From NCBI GenBank assembly GCA_964291265.2, contig OZ219747.1:3200001-3264000 (forward strand): a stretch of 64,000 bases of DNA, in the 5' to 3' direction. The notes below the pieces were generated by a model, which was not told where the DNA came from, did not search any database, and saw only the letters and a list, made by a program, of their open reading frames with translations. A program made the translations under genes and the position numbers. This stretch comes from Alphaproteobacteria bacterium. Its GTDB lineage: Bacteria > Pseudomonadota > Alphaproteobacteria > SP197. Shown here one piece after another: positions 40,483 to 52,294 of this stretch. Numbering within the stretch: position 1 is the first letter of the stretch; every line of letters starts with the position of its first letter.

Positions 40483-42195
40483 TCAAACGGGAAAATCGAT
40501 ACGCCATGCGACCGCGGCGCTCGTTGCCATGGCCTCCTGGCGCGCCTCGATCGTCTGCGGCGTCCACTCGGCGTACTGGCTCGCGATGTCCCGGGTCGTC
40601 CGGAAACGGCTATTCGCGAACACTGTCCGTTTGGCTTCGTAGTCGGCATTGCCGGCGTTGCGATTCGAGCCCTCTTCCAGCAACGCCATGTTGCCGAGGC
40701 GCGATGTCTGAGCCTCCAGTTCTCCTTCGCCGAACCGGTCCCAGCCGTCTCCAGGGTTCAGCGGACAGATATGCTCCAAGGTTGTCCGGCTGTCCTCGAA
40801 GTCCAGGCGATTGCCGGATGCCTGCCGCTCCAGTTCGAACAGGATGTAGCGGACAACCCGCTTGTTTCGCGTCTGCGCAACGCCGATGGACTTCTCGCCA
40901 AAACTCAGCCGGAACCGTTCGTCGTCGGGATAGACCGGCCGCAGGCTGCCCATGACTTGGCGGATCGAGGAATGCTCGCCTCGCGTAATCCTCTGGGCTT
41001 CCGCATGGTAGACCCGCTCCTGCTCGCTTCCGTGAAGACCGCCGACGACATTGTAGCGCAAGGAGATGATCACGACCGAGCGCAGCAGCTTCTCGAAGTC
41101 CGCATCGCCCAGAGAACGCCGCGCAGCCAGCAGCAGGGGAAACGGCTGGCGGACGCTGAACATGCGAAGGGTCCGGACATGCTGCTTCCATTCGACAGGC
41201 CAGTCTGAGCCGTCCGGCTGCGTCAACGCCAGATAAGCCTCGATATCGGTTTCGAGTTCCTGCAGGAGCGAAAACGCATCCCTCCTGTTCCGGACTTTGG
41301 CGCGGACGCTCTTGAAAAGGTCCGACAACCGGACGGTTGCTCTCCGGCTTATCCAGTGGACACGCAGAAAGTCCGGAAAGCTCTCCTCCCCGAGCCTTCC
41401 TACGATGCCGTTCCAGCGTCCTTCCAGCGTCTCGATCTCACGCTCGTGCTCGCCCTGGCGATGCAGGAGCGAGAACAGGTAGTTCTTCAGGAGGTCGGTC
41501 GCCGAGAGCCGCACGCCCCGCGCATTCAGCGTTTCGAACACCCGGTAGGCGTTCAATTCGTCGGTGACCGTGATGACGGTGAAGAGCAGCTTGTCGCTCA
41601 TTCCGTCGATCAGCCGAACCACCGCCAGGCCAGGGTCCTCCTCTTCCTCCAGATAGTCCCGAAATCGGCGGTCGAACCACTCGAACGCCTTGCGCATGTC
41701 GTGTTCCGACTTTCTGAATCCCCGTCTCGGCAAGGGCGAGGTCAGCGGAACCAGATATGTCTGGAAATAGTGGTCATTGTTCCGGTTCAGCTTCAGCTTG
41801 GGTTCCGAAACAAGGGTCACCGGATCGAGGTATCCGATATAGGCTTGGCGCAGGCTTTCGAGCCTCTTGCGGGTGTTCTCGGTATCCCGCCCCTGGTCGA
41901 GCAGGACGTTCAATTGCCGCAGGGCGGCCAGCACGAGAATGCTGAGCGTTGTCAGGCGCTGTTGTCCGTCGATGATGTCGAACCGCTTGCCGTCCTCCGA
42001 CTGCAGGACGAGATAGCCCATGTAGTGCGCCGGCTCCCCCTCTGGACGCATGAGCTCGCGAATATCCTGCCAGAGGTCGTCCCACTCCTCCTCGCCCCAG
42101 CTGTAGTCGCGCTGGAACGGCGGCACCCGGTAGAGCAGGCCGTTGCCCATCAACTGGCGCCAGGTGCTGTTGCTGGTATTGAAATTCGTAGCCAT
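40483..42195 (-). CDS. DUF262 + HNH(DUF1524) protein, GmrSD-like restriction/defence enzyme
   Basis: PPFQRDYSW, DGQQR and FETLNARG; C-terminal LEHICP...LGNMALL..N. Confidence 0.88.
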   Translation of the reverse strand: MATNFNTSNSTWRQLMGNGLLYRVPPFQRDYSWGEEEWDDLWQDIRELMRPEGEPAHYMGYLVLQSEDGKRFDIIDGQQRLTTLSILVLAALRQLNVLLDQGRDTENTRKRLESLRQAYIGYLDPVTLVSEPKLKLNRNNDHYFQTYLVPLTSPLPRRGFRKSEHDMRKAFEWFDRRFRDYLEEEEDPGLAVVRLIDGMSDKLLFTVITVTDELNAYRVFETLNARGVRLSATDLLKNYLFSLLHRQGEHEREIETLEGRWNGIVGRLGEESFPDFLRVHWISRRATVRLSDLFKSVRAKVRNRRDAFSLLQELETDIEAYLALTQPDGSDWPVEWKQHVRTLRMFSVRQPFPLLLAARRSLGDADFEKLLRSVVIISLRYNVVGGLHGSEQERVYHAEAQRITRGEHSSIRQVMGSLRPVYPDDERFRLSFGEKSIGVAQTRNKRVVRYILFELERQASGNRLDFEDSRTTLEHICPLNPGDGWDRFGEGELEAQTSRLGNMALLEEGSNRNAGNADYEAKRTVFANSRFRTTRDIASQYAEWTPQTIEARQEAMATSAAVAWRIDFPV

Positions 42196-42300
42196 TCGCG
42201 TGCCGACTCGCCGAAAGGGCCGCCTTGGTTCGCGGCTCGGAATTCGAGTTGCAGATACCTGCTCGCCCCTGTTGATCATTGATCGTCTTTTCTGACGGCG

Positions 42301-43164: not shown

Positions 43165-43455
43165 TCATCATTGCCCACAAATACCGTCTGGCTAGCTGAT
43201 GTGTTGCCGCACGGCGCTGTCGTCCCCGGCATCGACACTGTAACCAAGCATCCACGCCGTGAACGACAGCGCAGCCTGGCCGTTCCAGGTGATCTCCGCG
43301 CCGGTCGGGCCGTCCTTGCTGCGGTTCAGGTATCCGCCCATCGTCGCCACGAGGCGGAATGCCGCTGAGAGATCTTCGGGCGGCGGCAGCTTGCGGACAT
43401 GCGCGAAGTCTTTCAGCAGCGCCAGTTCGATGTCGGTGAATGCGGTCCTTGCCGG
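43165..43455 (-). pseudogene. IS4-family (IS50/Tn5-like) transposase, C-terminal piece and probable element end
   Basis: LPARTAFTDIELALL...VATMGGYLNRSKDGPTGAEITWNG; ends near TGTGGGCAATGATGA. Confidence 0.75.
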
Positions 43456-43840
43456 AAGCTTGTCGGCGGCGATTTAGAACGGCGGGATATTGGCGGAGAA
43501 CCGCTCTTTTGGGCGCTGATCGTGTGAGTGGGTGACCACGACAGGAGAACGTGCGGCATTGGACGAAGGTCCGCCCGGTCTTTGTTTTCTGCCTATTGTT
43601 GGATCCCATTGGTCTTGCATTGACGTTGACGATGTCGTTCCGGTCGGCGTTTTCTGGCGTTCGGCGTTTGTGGAACGTGATGTGGGAGGGGAGCTTCAGG
43701 CTTTTGCGCGTGGTTTCGTTCTGGCGTTCTCCGTCCTCGTCGTGGTTCGTCGGGCGGGACGATCTCGAGGCTGGAGAGCTGACGGTTTCTGTTGCGCTGG
43801 GCGAAGAGGCTGCGTGCGTTGCGGTTGCGGCGGCGCAGGG

Positions 43841-44580
43841 TGCGGCAGGCGTCGAGTGTTTTCGGGCGGATGCTGCGACCTGTGAGCCAGTCCGGCGGCG
43901 GATCGGGCGTTGCTGCGGCTCAGCGGCTGCGGCAGTCTCGTGATGTGGTGTCGTTTGGACGGCCCGGGGGTTTCCCGGGGAGGCTGAGAGGCGCGTCGGG
44001 GTGAGACGTTCTCATTCCTGGATGGTAACGCGTGACCGCGTTCAAGGGTCTTGCGAGATTACGTGTCCCTTCCGTAGCCGCGTGGCGGTTCGATGTCCTC
44101 GAGAGCCTCGATGTCGGCATCGGCGACGATCTGCAGGCGTTCTCCGTAAGGCGTGTCACGGAGGGTTTCGGGGATGCTGTCGAGGCGGTCACGCCATTCG
44201 TCCTGCAGGGTGCGGCAGGCGTTGAGTGTTTTCGGGCGGATGCTGCGACCTGTGAGCCAGTCCGGCGGCGGATCGGGCGTCGCTGCGGCTCAGAGGCTGC
44301 GGCAGTCTCGTGATGCGGTGTCGTTTGGACGGCCCGGGTGTTTCCCGGGGAGGCTGAGCGGCGCGTCGGGGTGAGACGTTCTCATTCCTGGATGGTAACG
44401 CGTGACCGCGTTCAAGGGTCTTGCGGGATCACGTATCCCTTCCGTAGCCGCGTGGCGGTTCGATGTCCTCGAGGGCCTCGATGTCGGCATCGGCGACGCT
44501 CTGCAGGCGTTCTCCGTAAGGCGTGTCACGGAGGCTTTCGGGGATGCTGTCGAGGTGGTCACGCCATTCGTCCTGCAGGG
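43841..44580. repeat. 370-bp tandem duplication (43841-44210, 44211-44580)
   Basis: Read directly; GCAGGG microhomology at the junctions; a few SNPs. Confidence 0.9.
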
Positions 44581-44749
44581 AGCGCAGTTCGGCCACGGCG
44601 TCGTTCCAGCGTTGCGGTCGCGAGCGCCGGTCACGGTGCTTTGGGGTGTGGACGGGAGGGATGCCGGCCTTGCGCCGTTCCCGGTATCGCCGCTGCTTTT
44701 CGGCGGGCGTGAGGGGCATGAGTGGTCTCCTTGTGACGGACGTGGTCAT
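44429..44749 (-). CDS. Small basic IS21-associated hypothetical protein
   Basis: MPLTPAEKQRRYRERR...RSRPQRWNDAVAEL...PPRGYGRD; ATGA overlap with the upstream gene. Confidence 0.7.
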   Translation of the reverse strand: MTTSVTRRPLMPLTPAEKQRRYRERRKAGIPPVHTPKHRDRRSRPQRWNDAVAELRSLQDEWRDHLDSIPESLRDTPYGERLQSVADADIEALEDIEPPRGYGRDT

Positions 44750-45639
44750 GATCTCGCTTGTGGTTCTTTGGTCCTGGCGTTGACGACGTCGTTCCAGTCG
44801 GCGTTTTCCGGCGGTCTGCGTCTGTGGAACGAGACGTGGGAGGGGAGCTTCATCTTTTTGCGCAGGGTTTCGGCCTGTCGCTCTCCGGCCTCGTCGTGGT
44901 CCTGGGCGAGGACGATGGTCCTGACGTTGAGCAGGCTGCTTGCGGCGAGGCTGATCTGTTCGTGCTGTCTTCGCGAGGGTGCCCCGGCGGTGGAGAGGAA
45001 GGCGTGGCTGGGGGGACATTGGTCGATCTGGGCCAGGCTGAGGGCGTCGACGGCGCTTTCGGTGATGACGAGGGCCTCGAGGTCCGCGGCGGTTCCGGCG
45101 CGGACGGCGAACAGGCTTCGGGTTCCACCGGTGGCGAAGCGTTTCGGTCCGTCGGGGGGACCGATCTCGAAGCCGGTGAGCTTTCGCTTCCTGTTGCGAT
45201 GGGCGAAGAGGACGCGTCCGTTGTGGTCGCGGCGGACCAGGGGGCGGCAGGTGTCGAGGGTCTCCGGGAGGATGCCGCGCCCGGTGAGCCAGTCCGGGGC
45301 CGCATCGGGCGTTGCCGCGGCCCAGAGGCTGCGGAAGTCGCGTGGCGCGGCGTCGGGTGCTGCGAAGCGGGTGCAGATGTCGGCGAAGGCCAGTCCGCGG
45401 TTGAGCATGAAGTCGATGACGGTTCCGTTGTCTTCATCGTTCTGGGTGTTGAAGTAGACTCAGTGTCCGTTGTTGAGGCACTTCGTGACGAGCTTCGGCA
45501 GGCCGGGTGCGCACAGGACGGGGTTGGCGCGTGTCGAGGCCTGTTCGTCGCGGACGTATCCCCAGTCGGCGGCGATGCGTTCGAACGGCATGCGCTTGAC
45601 GGCGTCGAAGTCGACGCGGCGGGGTTTATCGGGTTTCAC
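44746..45639 (-). pseudogene. DUF3991/Toprim-like (primase-like) protein with an in-frame TGA at 45460-45462
   Basis: GH*VYFNTQNDEDNGTVIDF, WLTGRGI, GFEI, VITESAVDALS, LAQDHDEAGE and DWND (Toprim E...DxD). Confidence 0.72.
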
Positions 45640-46327
45640 GCCTGAGCCGCCAGGAGTCGCTGTCGATGGAGATGAGGGTTGCGTCGTGCATGAGCCGGTC
45701 GACGGTGCCGGCGATGCCGGAGGCGCTGGGGAAGACGCGGTCCCACTGGGCGAAGGCGAGGCTTGTCGTGACCATGGTCGAGCGGCGCTGATAGCGCCGC
45801 GAGACGATGGCGTAGAGGATGTCGGCATGGTGGCTTTCGAGGGTCACGTAGCCGATTTCGTCGAGGACGAGCAGGCGGGGCCTGGCGAGGATCGCGAGGC
45901 GGCGGCGCAGCTCGCTGCGCGAGACGGTCTCGGCGAGTGCCTCGAGCAGTTCCGGCGCCTTCTCGAAGCGGACGGTGTGGCCGTGCAGCAGGGCCTGGTG
46001 CGCCACGTTGGCGGCGATCATGGTCTTTCCGGTGCCCTGCCCGCCGACGAGCACGGCGTTGTCCGCACGGTCGACGAAGCCGAGGCCGAAGAGCGCTTCG
46101 ACATGAGCCCGGCTGATGTCGCGCGGCCATGTCCAGTCGAAGTCCGCCAGGGGCTTGAAGGCGGGCAGCCGCGCCGCGGCGCGGCGGCGCTCGTGGCTGC
46201 GGGCCCTGCGGGCCTGTTCCTCGCCGCTGACCACCTCCTCGATCCATGCGGTCCCGGCGACCTCGTCCCAGCGTTCGACGAGCCCGTGGAGGCCGAGCGC
46301 CCGGGCACGCTCCCTGAGCTCGCTCAT
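45626..46327 (-). CDS. istB: IS21 helper ATPase
   Basis: FDWTWP, Walker A GGQGTGKT, Walker B LVLDEIG, DRLMH and SWRL. Confidence 0.93.
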   Translation of the reverse strand: MSELRERARALGLHGLVERWDEVAGTAWIEEVVSGEEQARRARSHERRRAAARLPAFKPLADFDWTWPRDISRAHVEALFGLGFVDRADNAVLVGGQGTGKTMIAANVAHQALLHGHTVRFEKAPELLEALAETVSRSELRRRLAILARPRLLVLDEIGYVTLESHHADILYAIVSRRYQRRSTMVTTSLAFAQWDRVFPSASGIAGTVDRLMHDATLISIDSDSWRLRRETR

Positions 46328-47817
46328 GTCTTGTTCCTGGCGCTGGCTTCGGGCCTGTCGTAGGCGTCGAGAGCGGTCCCCCGCGGCGTCGTGCCACGGC
46401 CGCCGCGGCCGTCGTCGGCGATGCTGAGGGGCGGCAGGCCCTGCTCCCGGCGGCGCTCCTCGATGATGACGCGCACGGTTTCGGGGTGGCACGAGCCGCG
46501 CTCCAGCGCCGTGGCGACAGCCCGGTCGAGAGCGTCGGCGCCGTGCGCGTTGAGAAGCGTCTCCAGCATCCGGGCGCAGGAGGCCACGTTGCGCCCGTTG
46601 GTCCCGGCGCGCGCCAGCATCTCCTCGGCCCGCGGCACGGTGCGCAGGACCCGGTCGCGGACGCTCATGGAGCGGGCCCGCCGCTTGCCCGCGGCGATCG
46701 CCCTGGCATGCTCCGGATCGGTGACGGCCTGCTTCCTGTCGTAGGAGCGTCGGTGGCGCGCGACCTCGTCGGCGCCGTCGAGGATGCGAACCTCGTCGCG
46801 GTCGGCGACCAGCGTCAGCAGGGCCTTGGAGAAGCTACCCGGAACGCTGTAGTCGTTGGTGTCGAAGCGGGCGTGGCAGGTCTTGTCGATGCGCACCGGG
46901 CGGACCTCGTGATGCGGGAAGGGGTCGACGGGAAGGACGATCAGGTGCTCCCTCTCCCGGGCGAAGGCGTCCCGCACCAGGAGACTGTCGTCGTCCGGCC
47001 AGGGCCGCTCCGCGGCGGCGCCGAAGCACCACTCCCGAACTGCGGCGTTGAGCTCGCCGAGCGGGACCGTGATGTCGCGCCCGGCGAAGAACCCGGTGCG
47101 CGCGAAGCGCACACGGCGTTCCACGCGGCCCTTCTCCTGCGGGCTCCTGGGCCAGGCGGCGCTCGGTTCGAAGGCATAGTGGGCCGCGAGGCCGAGCAGC
47201 ATCGGATGATAGGTGACCGCCTTGCCGCGGCGCGTCACCACGGCACTCTTCAGGTTGTCGTACAGAAGCCTCCGCGGCACACCCCCGAATGCCGCGAAAG
47301 CCTCGACATGGCCTTGCAGGAAGCTGGCCATCCGCGCGTCGTGGAACAGGCTCAGGACAGTCTGGCGCGAGTAGCTGAGGGTGACGAGAAGCCCCATGAG
47401 CCTGCGCTCCGCCCGGCCAATGCGGACCTTCCCGAACTCGGCCCAGTCAACCTGCGCCTGCTCGCCCGGAAGGAAGCTCAGCCGCAGCGACGGCTCGGGC
47501 CTCTTCACCGGCCTCAGCCCAAGGCGGCGCAGGTCGTGACGGAAGTGATCCTCGCCGCCGCGGTAGCCCAGAGCCACGACCTGTCGCCAGAGCGTGCTGG
47601 CCGGAAGGTCCGGCGACGCCTCAAGACGCTCCCCGAGGAAGGCAACGAAGGGGTCGATGAGCTTGGCCCGCGGCCGCCGCTCCTGCCCCGACGCCTTGAG
47701 CGCCCGCGTCACCGTGCCGTGGTGCACGCCGAGATGCCGGGCAATCGTCCCCACAGCCCAGCCCTCGGCCCGCGACAGCCGCACGATCGTCGCCCGCGTG
47801 TCCTCGTCGATCGCCAT
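46324..47817 (-). CDS. istA: IS21 transposase
   Basis: PGEQAQVDW, YDNLKSAV, EKGRVER and FDTNDYSVP. Confidence 0.94.
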   Translation of the reverse strand: MAIDEDTRATIVRLSRAEGWAVGTIARHLGVHHGTVTRALKASGQERRPRAKLIDPFVAFLGERLEASPDLPASTLWRQVVALGYRGGEDHFRHDLRRLGLRPVKRPEPSLRLSFLPGEQAQVDWAEFGKVRIGRAERRLMGLLVTLSYSRQTVLSLFHDARMASFLQGHVEAFAAFGGVPRRLLYDNLKSAVVTRRGKAVTYHPMLLGLAAHYAFEPSAAWPRSPQEKGRVERRVRFARTGFFAGRDITVPLGELNAAVREWCFGAAAERPWPDDDSLLVRDAFAREREHLIVLPVDPFPHHEVRPVRIDKTCHARFDTNDYSVPGSFSKALLTLVADRDEVRILDGADEVARHRRSYDRKQAVTDPEHARAIAAGKRRARSMSVRDRVLRTVPRAEEMLARAGTNGRNVASCARMLETLLNAHGADALDRAVATALERGSCHPETVRVIIEERRREQGLPPLSIADDGRGGRGTTPRGTALDAYDRPEASARNKT

Positions 47818-47849
47818 GAACTCCCTCCCTTTGGTTCCTCAACGCCGCA

Positions 47850-48380
47850 TCACAGGTCCCTCAGCACCACATGCGTCACGACCCGTCCGCACCGGGCGCA
47901 CCGAAGCGGCGATTCGCGTCGCTCTTGCGCCTTCACAACCGCAGGTAGGGAGGTCGGCAGCAGTCGGGAAGGGTGGTCCGTAACGATTTCTTCGGAACCG
48001 GCGTCTCCAGACACCGCCGGAACGTCGCCAAGCAGCACCACAGCAGACGTCTGCGTGTCCATGATCTCGGCAACCATCGCCGCCCTGGCCTTCAACGCAC
48101 GCGCCTCCTCCGCCTTGCGGAGCCGGTAACGCCGCTGGCGGTGACGGCCCGTCTCACGGCCCTTCAGCGTGCTCTGGTAGCGACGACGCGACGCGCGGCG
48201 CCGCTCGATCCGGGACCGCTCCCTGCACTCCTTGGAGCAATACACATGCCCCCGGTCACACGACCGGCAGAGAACAACCTGCCGCTGACACCGCCTGCAG
48301 TTGAACAGTCGTCCCGTCGTGCACACGATCCGTCTCGAGAGCGGGGGTGGACCCGGACGCAAAATGGCTCGACAATACAC
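47850..48380 (-). CDS. Cys-rich (putative zinc-finger) basic protein upstream of istA; start uncertain
   Basis: CRRC..C..CDRG..YCSKEC, Arg-rich helix, C-terminal CARCG. Confidence 0.7.
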   Translation of the reverse strand: MYCRAILRPGPPPLSRRIVCTTGRLFNCRRCQRQVVLCRSCDRGHVYCSKECRERSRIERRRASRRRYQSTLKGRETGRHRQRRYRLRKAEEARALKARAAMVAEIMDTQTSAVVLLGDVPAVSGDAGSEEIVTDHPSRLLPTSLPAVVKAQERRESPLRCARCGRVVTHVVLRDL

Positions 48381-48812
48381 GGGAGTTCGGTCCCCCGTGA
48401 CCGGCTCGTCCGGGTGCTGCGCCGGGGGGCGTCACAACTCCGCCCGGCATCGCATCGCTCTTTCTCTTGATGCCGATCTAGCATCCACCCGGGGCGGCGG
48501 CAAAGACGCCGCCCCGGGACCGGACAACGCGACCCGCCCACAGGGAAGACAAACAATCCCGCGAGTGCCTCGGAACCGGAACCCTCCCGGCAACCGTCAC
48601 CAAAACCGAAGCAGAGGTCGACGGAACAACCCGAACCGGACCAAAACGACAATAGGAAAAGACGGCGGCGCTCGGGGAGACAACCAGCCGAACACTCAAA
48701 CCACGACAACAGGACGTGACAATAGGACCTGACAACAGGGAAGAAACACGACCCTGACAAAGCGCGGCAAATCGCCGAAATCCCGCCGTTCTATGCAGCC
48801 ATCAACAAAGCT

Positions 48813-49420
48813 CCGGTTCCGTTCGCGCCAGGTGGGTGAGAGCGGCGATGCGCCAGGCAATCACCGCGTTGATGGCCACGGCCCGTTCGATGCGTCCCCC
48901 GGTACGATGCGCGATCGTCTCCACCTTGCAGCCCGACTTGAGGATCCTGTGCCAGTCCTCGATCCACCACCTCAACCCGTAGAGCCGCACCACCTCGCGG
49001 GCCTGGTGCAGGCTCGTGACAGGCAGGGTCGTGAGCAGGGTCCACGACACCGGTTGTGACCCGTCGTCGGGCCTGTCCACCTCCCCGGCATGGATCGCGG
49101 TCAGCACCACCGGCTCCGCTCCGAAGCGCGCCCTTGTGTGTGCAGGCGGCGGGATCTCGAGTGTCAGTCAGCGCAGGCTCACCTGCGCCTGGCGCCTCGC
49201 TCGCCCGACGGAGGCCTTCTGCGCCCCTGTCGAACGTCGCCCCGACAATCGCTCCACCGTGAGGGAGAACTGTCCGCCTTCCGGCGCCGTGCGCACACGC
49301 TCGAACAGCTTGGGCCGGCCGCGGCCGAAGCTGCGGTCATGGCGCGCCCGCACCAGCAGCGCCAGACGGCGGCAGCCCGCCGCACGGTGCTCGTGGCACC
49401 GCAACACCATGAAGGAAGCG
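48813..49420 (-). pseudogene. IS4-family (IS50/Tn5-like) transposase, central piece, frameshifted
   Basis: LLVRARHDR, WTLLTT, YGLRWWIEDWHRILKSGC (YREK motif); joins the 43455 piece as EPEL/PAR. Confidence 0.85.
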
Positions 49421-49770: not shown

Positions 49771-51789
49771 TCAGGGCCGGGTCAGGGCGTTGATGGCCTC
49801 GCGACGGTCCAGTTGTAGGCGGCGCCGGGTTTCGGCGAGGCTTTCGGCCTCGCGGCGGTTGGCGAAGATCACCGCGAGCGCGATGTTGTTGAGGCTGGCC
49901 CGGTTCGCCGGGCCGTTGTCGGTGCGGGTCAGGCAGGCGTCTTCGCCGAAGACGCAATCCCTTTGTCGATGGTTCAGATTTTCCACGGCCCAGTGGCGGC
50001 GGTTCAGTCGCAGCAACTCTTCCGGCGACGTGGCCCCCGTATCGAGAGAGGTGATGATGTAATCGGTTTCCGTGTAATCCTTCTCTTCTTGCTTCCCGGC
50101 ATCGCCGGAGCCTTTCTTCCCGGCATCGCCGGGGCCTTTCTTCCCGGCATCGCCGGGGCCTTTCTTCCCGGCATCGCCGGGGCCTTTCTTCCCGGCATCG
50201 CCGGAGCCTTCCTTCCCGGCATCGCCGGAGCCTTCCTTCCCGGCATCGCCGGGGCCTTCCTTCCCGGCATCGCCGGAGCCTTCCTTCCCGGCATCGCCGG
50301 AGCCTTTCTTCCACGGCTCCCGATAGCGGGTGATGCGGGCGACCTGACGGACGCCCGGATAGTTGATCAGACCGTCCAACGGGACGAGGACGCTGATCGA
50401 ACGCTGCTCCAGTCGACCGTGCGCCTTGTCGAACGGCTCCGTGAAGTGGCCGGTAGCGTCTTTTTGCCAATTGATGCTGTCGAGGATGGCGAAGGTCTCC
50501 GGAGCGTTGCCCTTGACGACGAAGACGTAATCCGCGCGTTGTGTGATCAGCTTCGCGGTATGGCGTGTCGTGTGCAGCGCGTCGAGGGTGATCACCTTGC
50601 CGCCGATGTCGCTGCGCTCCAGGAGATCGTGCATGGCCGCCAGTTCGCCGCCTTCGTCGTTGAAGTTCAGGAGGGAAAAGGGCGCGCCGGTCTCATGGTC
50701 GACAAGGGCCACGGTCTCGTGACGGCCATCGCCGTTGCGGTTGGCGCCGCGGATGCGCTTGCCGTCGGCGGCGAGTGCACGGGCGAGGTGAAGCCGAGGC
50801 CGGGACCAGCGGGTGAGCACATCCTCCAGAGCCTCGGGGTCGATCGACTGGATAACCCGGTGGATGGTGGACTTGGAGACGGGCTCGCGAAGCCCCGTCT
50901 TCGGGTTAAGCCAGGCGCCGATGGCCTCCAACTCCTCCTGGGACAGGGACCGCGCGAACTGCGCGGCGGCGACACAGCCCTTCATGTTGGCGAACTCGGC
51001 GAGCACGTGCACGGTGAGCACCGATGCCGCGGTATGCTTCCTTCCCTGCGCCCGGCGGAAGTCGGGAATGGCCGCGAGCTCGGCGTAGAGCGAGCGCAGC
51101 ACCTTGGGGTCCCGGGGCGCCAGTTCGGGGCATGAGGGCGGCGCCACGTCGGGGGGAAGCGGCAGTGGGCTCGACAGCAGCGCCCGGGCATCGCGCCTCA
51201 GTGCCGTAACGTAGATATCCTTGGGCTTGCCGTGAGGATCGGTGTAACGCCCGTTGGAGCGGGCAAACCCCTTGGTCTCACCCAGACACGTCCAGCCCGC
51301 AGCCTTCAACATCGTGCCGGCAAAGATCTCCGGATCGCAGAACGTCTCCGCCAGCAACACCCCGTGGCCGTGCACCTGCAGCCAATCGTCACAGAGCCGG
51401 CGCGTCATGCACGCAAGGAAACAGGAAGCAAGGTTCGCAAACACCCCGGGCTTGGAGAGGATCAAGAACCGCGTGTTGTTGGCTACCATCGAGAGCCGCT
51501 GGAACTGCTGCTCCGGCTTCCAGCCGGTCCACTGGTCGCGGGGAGCGCACTTGAAGGCGCCGTTCTGCCACGCCGCCAGCCCCAGCCAATGGCCCCTGAA
51601 GGTCGCAAGGTAGCGCAGACCGCGACCCGCCAGGCGACGGAAGCCGAGATAGTGGTGCTTGTTCATCAGCGCGTCCCACAGCGGACGCTCCTCCGGCCTC
51701 GCCAGGCGAACATCGACCTCAGACAGGGAAAAACCCTCAGGTGCTTCCTGATGGATCGGGACAGCTTCCATGAGCTTGCGAATCGACAT
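49771..51789 (-). CDS. DUF4338 (DruA-like)-ISAs1 transposase fusion with an internal octapeptide repeat
   Basis: N-terminal HHYLG...LRY...RDQWTGW...NNTRFLIL; C-terminal ADGKRIRG, TLDALHT, VKGN, HWAVENLNH..D..FGED. Confidence 0.88.
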   Translation of the reverse strand: MSIRKLMEAVPIHQEAPEGFSLSEVDVRLARPEERPLWDALMNKHHYLGFRRLAGRGLRYLATFRGHWLGLAAWQNGAFKCAPRDQWTGWKPEQQFQRLSMVANNTRFLILSKPGVFANLASCFLACMTRRLCDDWLQVHGHGVLLAETFCDPEIFAGTMLKAAGWTCLGETKGFARSNGRYTDPHGKPKDIYVTALRRDARALLSSPLPLPPDVAPPSCPELAPRDPKVLRSLYAELAAIPDFRRAQGRKHTAASVLTVHVLAEFANMKGCVAAAQFARSLSQEELEAIGAWLNPKTGLREPVSKSTIHRVIQSIDPEALEDVLTRWSRPRLHLARALAADGKRIRGANRNGDGRHETVALVDHETGAPFSLLNFNDEGGELAAMHDLLERSDIGGKVITLDALHTTRHTAKLITQRADYVFVVKGNAPETFAILDSINWQKDATGHFTEPFDKAHGRLEQRSISVLVPLDGLINYPGVRQVARITRYREPWKKGSGDAGKEGSGDAGKEGPGDAGKEGSGDAGKEGSGDAGKKGPGDAGKKGPGDAGKKGPGDAGKKGSGDAGKQEEKDYTETDYIITSLDTGATSPEELLRLNRRHWAVENLNHRQRDCVFGEDACLTRTDNGPANRASLNNIALAVIFANRREAESLAETRRRLQLDRREAINALTRP
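50092..50307. repeat. 24-bp tandem repeat x9 encoding (K/E)G(S/P)GDAGK
   Basis: Read directly; in frame within the transposase. Confidence 0.93.
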
Positions 51790-52294
51790 GACCGGACCGT
51801 CGCACATCCCAAGCGGGATGGCCAGCGGAAAATGTCCGCGCGCGTGCAACATACGAACGCCTGACGTCAAGTGAAATCAAGCGAATTCCAGCGTGGGAAG
51901 GCCTTGAGTTCTCGGGTACGGTTCGATATGTCGGCGACGGTGATATCCTCTGTGTGGGTCAGACGGCCGACCCGGATCATTGGATCGAAGTTCGGACCGC
52001 GGACTTCGATGCCCTGGAACTTCACAAGCCGGGTGGTGAAGCGGCCAAGGCAGCACTTGTTCGATTGGCCCTTGGCCAGCCTGTCGCTTGCACCACAGCA
52101 CGAGGTCGAAGTGGCCGTGTCGTTTCCTTCGACCGGGTGATCGTCCGCTACCGTATCGGCTCCACGAGCATCGGAGACCTGCTCCGTCGGGCTGGCGTTG
52201 CCGAAGGTGGGAACTGACGACCGCCGACCGAGTAGGGAGCCAGTTCGACGGTCGGTCGGAGCCTCGCTCATGGCACAGGCGGGCAGCGCCAGAT

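Follow-up and report, generated by a model that had tools for sequence, protein, structure and literature searches.

The stretch of DNA analysed here (hereafter referred to as the window) comprises 64,000 nucleotides of contig OZ219747.1 (positions 3,200,001 to 3,264,000), from the alphaproteobacterial assembly GCA_964291265.2. It contains, at window positions 43461 to 48807, an active transposon of the insertion sequence (IS) family IS21, in which the transposition genes istA and istB are followed by a gene for a Toprim-domain protein resembling primases. This gene was likely derived from a plasmid or integrative element, and its product may prime the single-stranded DNA (ssDNA) exposed during copy-out from the donor site, a reading that we consider plausible, with slightly less than an even chance of being correct.

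The element is a genuine mobile unit that transposes as one piece. Its terminal TG (43461-62) and CA (48806-07) delimit 5347 bp between two exact copies of AAGCT (43456-43460 and 48808-48812), identified by end inspection and copy comparison. The genome under study (4.83 Mb, two contigs) harbours 30 full-length copies, 97.7-100% identical, together with some 12 that are interrupted or partial; the element makes up about 3% of the genome. Mobility is directly apparent, because the 30 full copies all occupy distinct sites and 26 are flanked by target duplications of 5-7 bp (21 of 5 bp, four of 6 bp and one of 7 bp). Excision of the window copy in silico rejoined the host reading (...ARTEPELPARTAF...), that of an 876-bp IS4-like transposase remnant on the minus strand (outer limits 43169..49396; weak Pfam match to DDE_Tnp_1, 1.2e-4), of which three uninterrupted copies (98% identity) are present elsewhere in the genome. 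The ends, the duplication, the restored host reading and the movement of all 5347 bp as a unit, as claimed in a preliminary description of this DNA, were thus borne out. The termini are inverted repeats ending in CA (CG in 1 of the 30 copies). IRR (43461..43510), on the gene-downstream side, begins with TG and is kept in relatives; IRL (48758..48807), on the gene-upstream side, finishes in CA, and comparison of the two ends revealed identity at 34 of the 50 outermost bases. No end-to-end (circle or tandem) junction was found in the assembly or in the contigs of three runs from one study, and contigs cannot exclude one.

The Toprim protein and its predicted structure

All the genes of the element lie on the minus strand, in the order previously proposed: a Cys-rich, Arg-rich gene (hereafter referred to as the Zn-finger gene), istA, istB, the Toprim gene and a small open reading frame (ORF), orf5, followed by a 0.9-kb tail. 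The istA gene (46324..47817) encodes a DDE transposase of 497 aa (223 bits for NCBIfam NF033546, cut-off 160), with a catalytic triad, D124, D187 and E233, numbered identically to that of IS5376 IstA. It is joined by the expected ATGA overlap to istB (45626..46327), which encodes an AAA+ ATPase of 233 aa (Pfam IstB_IS21, PF01695, 6.5e-50; 191 bits for NCBIfam NF038214, slightly below the cut-off of 200), with Walker A and Walker B motifs at residues 95-102 and 154-157. The Toprim gene (44746..45639; 297 codons; Pfam Toprim_2, 1.9e-13, and DUF3991, 3.5e-4) starts, as initially described, with a GTG overlapping the end of istB (45639, 14 nt inside istB). The window copy is broken by a single in-frame TGA (45462-45460, codon 60), also recognised earlier and unique to this copy, the other 29 of the 30 being intact; it also carries P237L. 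Mean pairwise difference among the 30 copies was lowest for the Toprim gene (0.14%), with values of 0.22% for istB, 0.32% for istA and 2.0% for the Zn-finger gene.

The model of the intact Toprim protein had a predicted local distance difference test (pLDDT) value of 91. The best structural match for residues 97-292 was T7 gp4 (Z score 15.5, root-mean-square deviation 3.1 across 172 residues), with Z scores of 12.8-13.5 for DnaG, 12.4-13.5 for DnaG and Twinkle together, and 10.9 for topoisomerase I, over only about 90 residues. The structure prediction suggested as a check in the preliminary description thus returned a Toprim fold of the primase type, and a profile comparison with T7 gp4 gave an E value of 5.5e-10. 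In the model, the layout of the RNA-polymerase domain of DnaG and T7 primases (N-terminal subdomain and Toprim fold) is present. The acidic metal-binding cluster (E, D, DxD and C-terminal D) is complete in the protein of this genome (E194, D198, D247, D249, D281 and D284), and E194, D247, D249, D281, D284, R121 and R174 are invariant in all 28 proteins of the clade alignment, which contains 28 of the 48 matches with more than 50% identity, most of those omitted being partial. The fold is that of the T7 gp4 primase and the DnaG RNA-polymerase domain, with T7 E157, D161 and DxD, which have catalytic roles in the T7 enzyme, aligned. Unlike those enzymes, the Toprim protein has no conserved zinc ligands, helicase or helicase-binding domain, and T7 R124 is replaced by G and K122 by E, the latter family-wide; the equivalents of T7 R84 and K137 are retained, and that of K128 is plausibly K/R166. 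On the basis of the model and the alignment, the protein resembles the core of a primase, its metal site being intact and its basic cleft altered. Co-folding of IstB with the Toprim protein gave a score of 0.00, against a mark of 0.32, and a search among longer proteins for fusions to IstA or IstB yielded a single 834-aa match (29%) containing the Toprim and DUF3991 families only, constituting weak evidence.

Linkage, selection and probable origin of the Toprim gene

Scanning genomes for the Toprim protein identified 52 loci in 15 assemblies. The istB gene was directly upstream in 42 of these loci, with the order Zn-finger, istA, istB, Toprim complete in 39; the 10 loci without istB were fragments of at most 155 residues. 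This core recurs within TG...CA ends in eight other assemblies, with IstA identity down to 49%. In five assemblies, 36 loci had two identifiable ends, typically delimiting 4.1-4.7 kb, and 31 of these loci had 5-7 bp duplications. As a scan beginning with Toprim is circular for linkage, we added a search beginning with IstA in 33 genomes of the family, which gave matches in 5 of the 32 others. A Toprim gene (60-64% identical) was found behind istB in G009 (67% IstA identity) and in G004 and G016 (49%), but not in G015 (47%), and the G012 locus was truncated and uninformative. The start codon of the Toprim gene, read by eye, overlaps or abuts the istB stop in all nine lineages. Across these lineages, the median ratio of nonsynonymous to synonymous substitution rates (dN/dS; Nei-Gojobori, 36 non-independent pairs, high GC) for Toprim was 0.43, close to the values for istA (0.36) and istB (0.34), and that of the Zn-finger gene was 0.55. 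Null Toprim alleles were unamplified (1 of 30 copies here and 1 of 25 loci in OZ241893). As judged from these sequence comparisons, the Toprim gene is under purifying selection and has long been linked to this IstA/IstB clade. Two changes are needed for the Toprim-linked rows of the IstA tree, the root of which is unsure, and one change in the IstB tree (support 83).

More distant elements have a different layout. Plasmid records with 42-47% IstA identity numbered 31, and in all four of those opened, an ORF of 63-73 aa replaces Toprim after the Zn-finger gene, istA and istB. The same layout, without Toprim, was found in G569 and G644, and there was no Toprim within the short stretch examined in G139. 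Two G243 loci also lacking Toprim were excluded from the trees and counts, and no main claim is built on them. In one widespread IS21 subgroup (L096-L099, L224 and L225), a Cys-rich gene lies 5' of istA and the 63-73 aa ORF, which is conserved, lies over the istB stop, neither being represented in Pfam. The Zn-finger gene is, thus, a marker of a wide IS21 subgroup mostly without Toprim, and Toprim is a marker of a sub-clade within which the conserved core consists of four genes: Zn-finger, istA, istB and Toprim. The genome search recommended in the preliminary description therefore confirmed the conservation of this order with an intact Toprim, and the linkage of close IstA and IstB homologues to it, but not the conservation of the fifth gene. 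The five-gene machine initially envisaged was not supported, given that orf5 is present in 2 of 9 lineages, with one stop shared by three copies here, and the Zn-finger gene typifies the wider subgroup.

The element resembles IS21 and IS5376, as presented in the accessible part of PMC10122671, in its IstA triad (D124/D187/E233), the presence of an IstB AAA+ ATPase in the same operon, TG...CA ends, mostly 5-bp duplications and the absence of a target consensus. IS21 elements are described, in the sections available of PMC10122671 and PMC12486865, as having only two ORFs, in an operon of about 2 kb. The element differs from IS21 and IS5376 in its four-gene core and its size (4.0-4.7 kb in relatives, 5.3 kb here). 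Clear L1/L2 direct repeats were not seen in its 50-bp ends, the best 12-mer self-match reaching 9/12. The canonical layout, with istA and istB alone between the ends, was not found, four conserved genes and orf5 occupying this space. Nevertheless, the element is an IS21 variant by each transposition feature tested, and its earlier designation as an undescribed IS21-derived class was too strong. No description of an IS21 element with its own primase-like gene was found in full-text literature searches covering titles and abstract starts, with ISfinder, TnCentral, most subscription journals and supplements outside their scope. The ends of relatives (L006, L012, L027, L031 and L092) have a dyad at both termini, with arms of 7-8 bp about 14 bp apart and no clear direct repeats; this dyad is degenerate in the window copy (48758-48807 and 43461-43510), with no compensatory changes visible by eye.

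The transposon Toprim proteins form a distinct clade (100/99 support) on a long stem, with 1.0 changes per column. They share their domain arrangement and the E...D, DxD and DWND motifs with the DUF3991 and Toprim proteins encoded by conjugative plasmids and integrative elements, with 29-40% identity; unlike the genes for those proteins, that of the window element lies behind istB, inside transposon ends, and the basic cleft is changed in the transposon clade. No IstA or IstB match was found at any of the 80 best metagenome loci of these distant relatives (29-40% identity), many on short contigs. A Pfam scan of 27 longer outside loci revealed a coupling protein or relaxase at 10, a type IA topoisomerase and/or tyrosine integrase at eight, ParA only at two, other mobile-element genes at four and nothing telling at three. 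The plasmid records agree with the metagenome loci on the conjugative setting of the relatives, one of which is a C-terminal domain behind mobC, and a DUF3991 gene is reported to be up-regulated along with tra genes in Rhizobium favelukesii (PMC13055273, part available). The transposon clade itself was not found in 72,556 plasmids, the 448 matches all having less than 60% identity (26-38% among the 40 matches listed), or in viral contigs. These sequence relationships point to a conjugative plasmid or integrative element as the likely source of the Toprim gene. In such a setting, the enzyme would serve to rebuild the missing strand after DNA transfer. A phage or viral origin was considered and rejected, with nothing in viral contigs and a single weak, partial phage match.

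Similar enzymes were found in other transposons. The same genome contains an unrelated 5.16-kb element with 5-bp duplications (G000:C2:47062-52222, L102; copies at C2 460796, 2542173, 3192044, 4052073 and 2281092-2291582), encoding a Zn-ribbon ORF, an IS481-like DDE transposase, an ExeA-like ATPase, an AAA_25 helicase-like ORF and a DUF3991 and Toprim protein. The last two may constitute a helicase-primase pair inside a transposon; two copies of this element are interrupted by the IS21 element. In G005, in which three of 15 loci with Toprim matches were opened, a 4.0-kb TG...CA element (L198:2147-6152, L199 and L200) has the Zn-ribbon, DDE, ExeA-like ATPase and Toprim genes without the helicase, and similar loci exist in G002, G009, G010 and G013. 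An IS21 element of another clade, in G061 (3423 bp, 7-bp duplications, five copies; L195:1613-5035, L196 and L197), has an IstA 31% identical to that of the window element and carries a Toprim gene that converges on istAB. A layout like that of the G061 element, with an orf5 homologue after istB, was observed in G010 (L202). The second Toprim lineage retains E, D and DxD in all 10 rows, and most of the plasmid proteins closest to it are MobV relaxases, related through their C-terminal domains. A single origin of all transposon-borne Toprims was rejected on a 45-row tree (p 2e-5), for which five MobV-type/IncP rows were added, one long-branch row was dropped and three N-termini were trimmed; the genomic context was unchecked for 4 of the 10 rows labelled as the window-element clade.

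Proposed role of the Toprim protein and alternatives

Second-strand priming in copy-out and replicative transposition is assumed to be a job for the host, and the elements in which it has been investigated are very few; the formation of IS911 circles reportedly depends on host DnaG. IS21 is listed among the families with circular intermediates presumed to move by copy-out (bioRxiv 10.1101/2023.06.07.543989), and replication is said to convert the figure-eight into a circle (PMC7780238), in the parts of these sources available. We propose the Toprim protein as the primer-maker because the second strand would require a new primer, a job plausibly performed by this family on plasmids. IstA would nick one end of the element and bridge it to the other end; the donor 3'-OH would prime one strand only, and the other would need a fresh primer. 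The Toprim protein would supply the displaced or lagging strand with an RNA primer, such that a 4-5 kb double-stranded circle could form without waiting for host DnaG. IstB would then capture the target DNA and IstA would carry out insertion with a 5-bp stagger. The window copy would be a primase-null mutant, dependent on its 29 intact counterparts or on host DnaG. More broadly, and with greater doubt, it may be that DDE and AAA+ transposons have repeatedly domesticated plasmid-transfer primases, once together with a helicase, becoming replicative transposons that prime themselves, setting up a replication start of their own on the intermediate of transposition, with this IS21 clade as an example with an intact active site.

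Several findings weigh against a priming role or its generality. The linkage count is partly circular, as eight of the linked assemblies were found via Toprim itself, and Zn-finger-bearing sister elements with 39-47% IstA identity have no Toprim. The host dnaG is intact, which also rules out the loss of host primase as the reason for keeping Toprim. According to the accessible text of PMC10122671, the IstA and IstB of IS5376 can alone integrate pre-cleaved ends in vitro. The top Foldseek match of the Toprim protein was human Twinkle. The primase domain of Twinkle is inactive, and the fold by itself is, therefore, no proof of priming. There is no conserved Cys in the invariant or near-invariant columns of the N-terminal domain, C43 being present in 1 of 28 proteins, so the four-ligand zinc-binding domain of DnaG and T7 primases is absent as judged by Cys conservation. 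D198 (T7 D161) is replaced by N in 14 of 28 clade proteins, versus D in all 37 outside proteins, and all 28 have G, A or S in place of the lysine aligned with T7 R124. Finally, an earlier 41-row test did not reject a single origin of the two transposon-borne lineages (p 0.49).

The substitution of D198, the loss of this basic-cleft lysine and the long stem of the clade would also fit an accessory protein that binds ssDNA or forked DNA, or passes the intermediate to the host replisome, with no need for primer synthesis. We consider this unlikely, as pure binding would require none of the five acids that are invariant in 28 proteins spanning 50-100% identity, and the second transposon lineage likewise keeps E, D and DxD. 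A nicking enzyme acting on the non-transferred strand or in resolution of the intermediate, in the manner of TnsA of Tn7, would be consistent with the retention of the acids despite the changed cleft and with the occurrence of Toprim folds in nucleases and topoisomerases. Given that a full primase RNA-polymerase domain aligns (172-184 residues, versus about 90 for topoisomerases and RNase M5) and that the nearest relatives are of the primase type by sequence, we accord this possibility very little credence.

It is improbable, to a somewhat greater degree than for a binding accessory, that Toprim is a passenger captured once beside istB and retained through hitch-hiking or an advantage to the host, without any role in transposition. 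Such a history would account for sister elements without Toprim, the acquisition of other DNA (orf5 and the tail relics), the availability of DnaG in the host and the convergent position, outside the operon, of Toprim in the other IS21 clade. However, the dN/dS of Toprim is close to that of the transposition genes, its start has remained at the istB stop in every lineage, its null alleles are unamplified whereas an orf5 null is present in three copies, and unrelated DDE and AAA+ elements have repeatedly captured the same type of enzyme. The gene might, alternatively, have kept its plasmid job, restoring the second strand on single-stranded entry into a cell, and be selected for intercellular spread rather than for the jump. 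The relatives adjoining relaxases and coupling proteins or fused to MobV, the rise of the R. favelukesii DUF3991 gene with tra genes (PMC13055273, part available) and the patchy distribution of the element (IstA matches in 5 of 32 other family genomes) point in this direction, but the element carries neither a relaxase gene nor a coupling gene and its Toprim clade is absent from the plasmids and viral contigs searched; we therefore judge this explanation highly improbable.

The proposed priming role can be set against two other arrangements. IEE, the IS excision enhancer, a PrimPol-helicase, is likewise of a primase family and affects copy-out; however, unlike the Toprim protein, it has an archaeo-eukaryotic primase (AEP) fold, comes from a gene located outside the IS and favours excision that is abortive, in the available part of its description (bioRxiv 10.1101/2023.06.07.543989), whereas the Toprim protein has a DnaG-type fold and is encoded within the expanding element. 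As in self-synthesizing transposons, the element encodes its own DNA-synthesis enzyme, here a primase only, with a DDE/AAA+ pair. Casposons, pipolins and Polintons, which belong to that group, have family B polymerases and other integrases. An IS21 element with a selected primase-fold gene, a naturally occurring null allele, sisters devoid of Toprim and a parallel case of independent origin renders the question of second-strand priming directly testable, an in vitro system being already established. Should the primase lessen the dependence of large elements on host replication, this would have a bearing on IS expansions and on larger cargo for IS21 tools.

Other genes, target sites and neighbouring features

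The Zn-finger gene (47850..48326, minus strand) probably starts with the GTG at 48326, the longest ORF beginning at 48380. It stops 32 nt short of istA, with no overlap, a correction to the coupling of five genes initially reported. Eight Cys are invariant in an alignment of 10 of its proteins, and relatives numbered 1741 cluster representatives at E<=1e-10. No match to PDB folds was obtained at E<=0.001; YacG appeared in weak rows only (E 2) and was not accepted. Internal stops are absent from the Zn-finger gene, istA and istB in all 30 copies.

The orf5 gene (44429..44719, minus strand) encodes a 96-aa basic protein of no known family. An ATG at 44749 does provide the ATGA overlap previously described, but the likely start is the non-overlapping ATG at 44719, preceded by AAGGAG and preferred because the best of the 1097 relatives have 96 aa and align over that length. 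The gene is intact in 27 of the 30 copies, the other three sharing a stop at codon 11. Homologues (57-77%) occur in other repeated DNA of the genome (L002, L003:3206-3493 and L004:3124-3363), one of them 3' of a 684-aa ORF labelled by eye as recombinase-like, and there was no match on plasmids. The orf5 gene is a late passenger of the element. The non-coding tail (43511..44428, minus strand), which did not feature in the preliminary description, was found by internal comparisons to consist of relics. Two pieces come from a second Toprim gene that has diverged (43621-43746, 85% to 44775-44900; 43744-43953, 81% to 45146-45355), and a 370-bp duplication carries the 3' half of orf5 (43835-44134, 96% to 44205-44504). 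The element is larger than its relatives with intact ends (5.3 kb versus 4.0-4.7 kb) because of these relics and the duplication, and orf5 and the tail were added later than the four-gene core.

No target consensus was found across the insertion sites. Target selection had been suggested as a role; a tie to replication forks was not supported by the orientations of 38 ends on the main contig (18 co-directional versus 20 head-on, with the origin and terminus placed by GC skew). Ends lay in repeated DNA in 21 of 40 cases, versus 189 of 1000 random windows; five of the 21 repeat insertions were self-insertions, with no enrichment within repeats (p 0.32). We read the excess in repeats as survival of harmless insertions, with no sign of target immunity. 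A junction promoter was also rejected: there was no sigma-70 match in the element, and weak -35/-10 sequences read by hand over a 3-nt junction were not conserved among relatives. At G000:C2:4237410-4258495, two element copies in direct repeat enclose about 5 kb of other mobile DNA, with GCACG shared by the outer ends, likely corresponding to a composite transposon or a rearrangement.

Two neighbouring ORFs lie on the minus strand of the window. The ORF at 40483-42279 (598 aa) encodes a protein that we take to resemble DUF262/GmrSD-type restriction proteins. The other, at 49771-51870, encodes a 699-aa transposase-like protein. The N-terminal domain of this protein is DruA-like (2e-19), and DDE_Tnp_1_assoc, DDE_Tnp_1 and an internal series of near-identical 9-aa repeats are also present; elsewhere, copies of this ORF serve as targets for the IS21 element.

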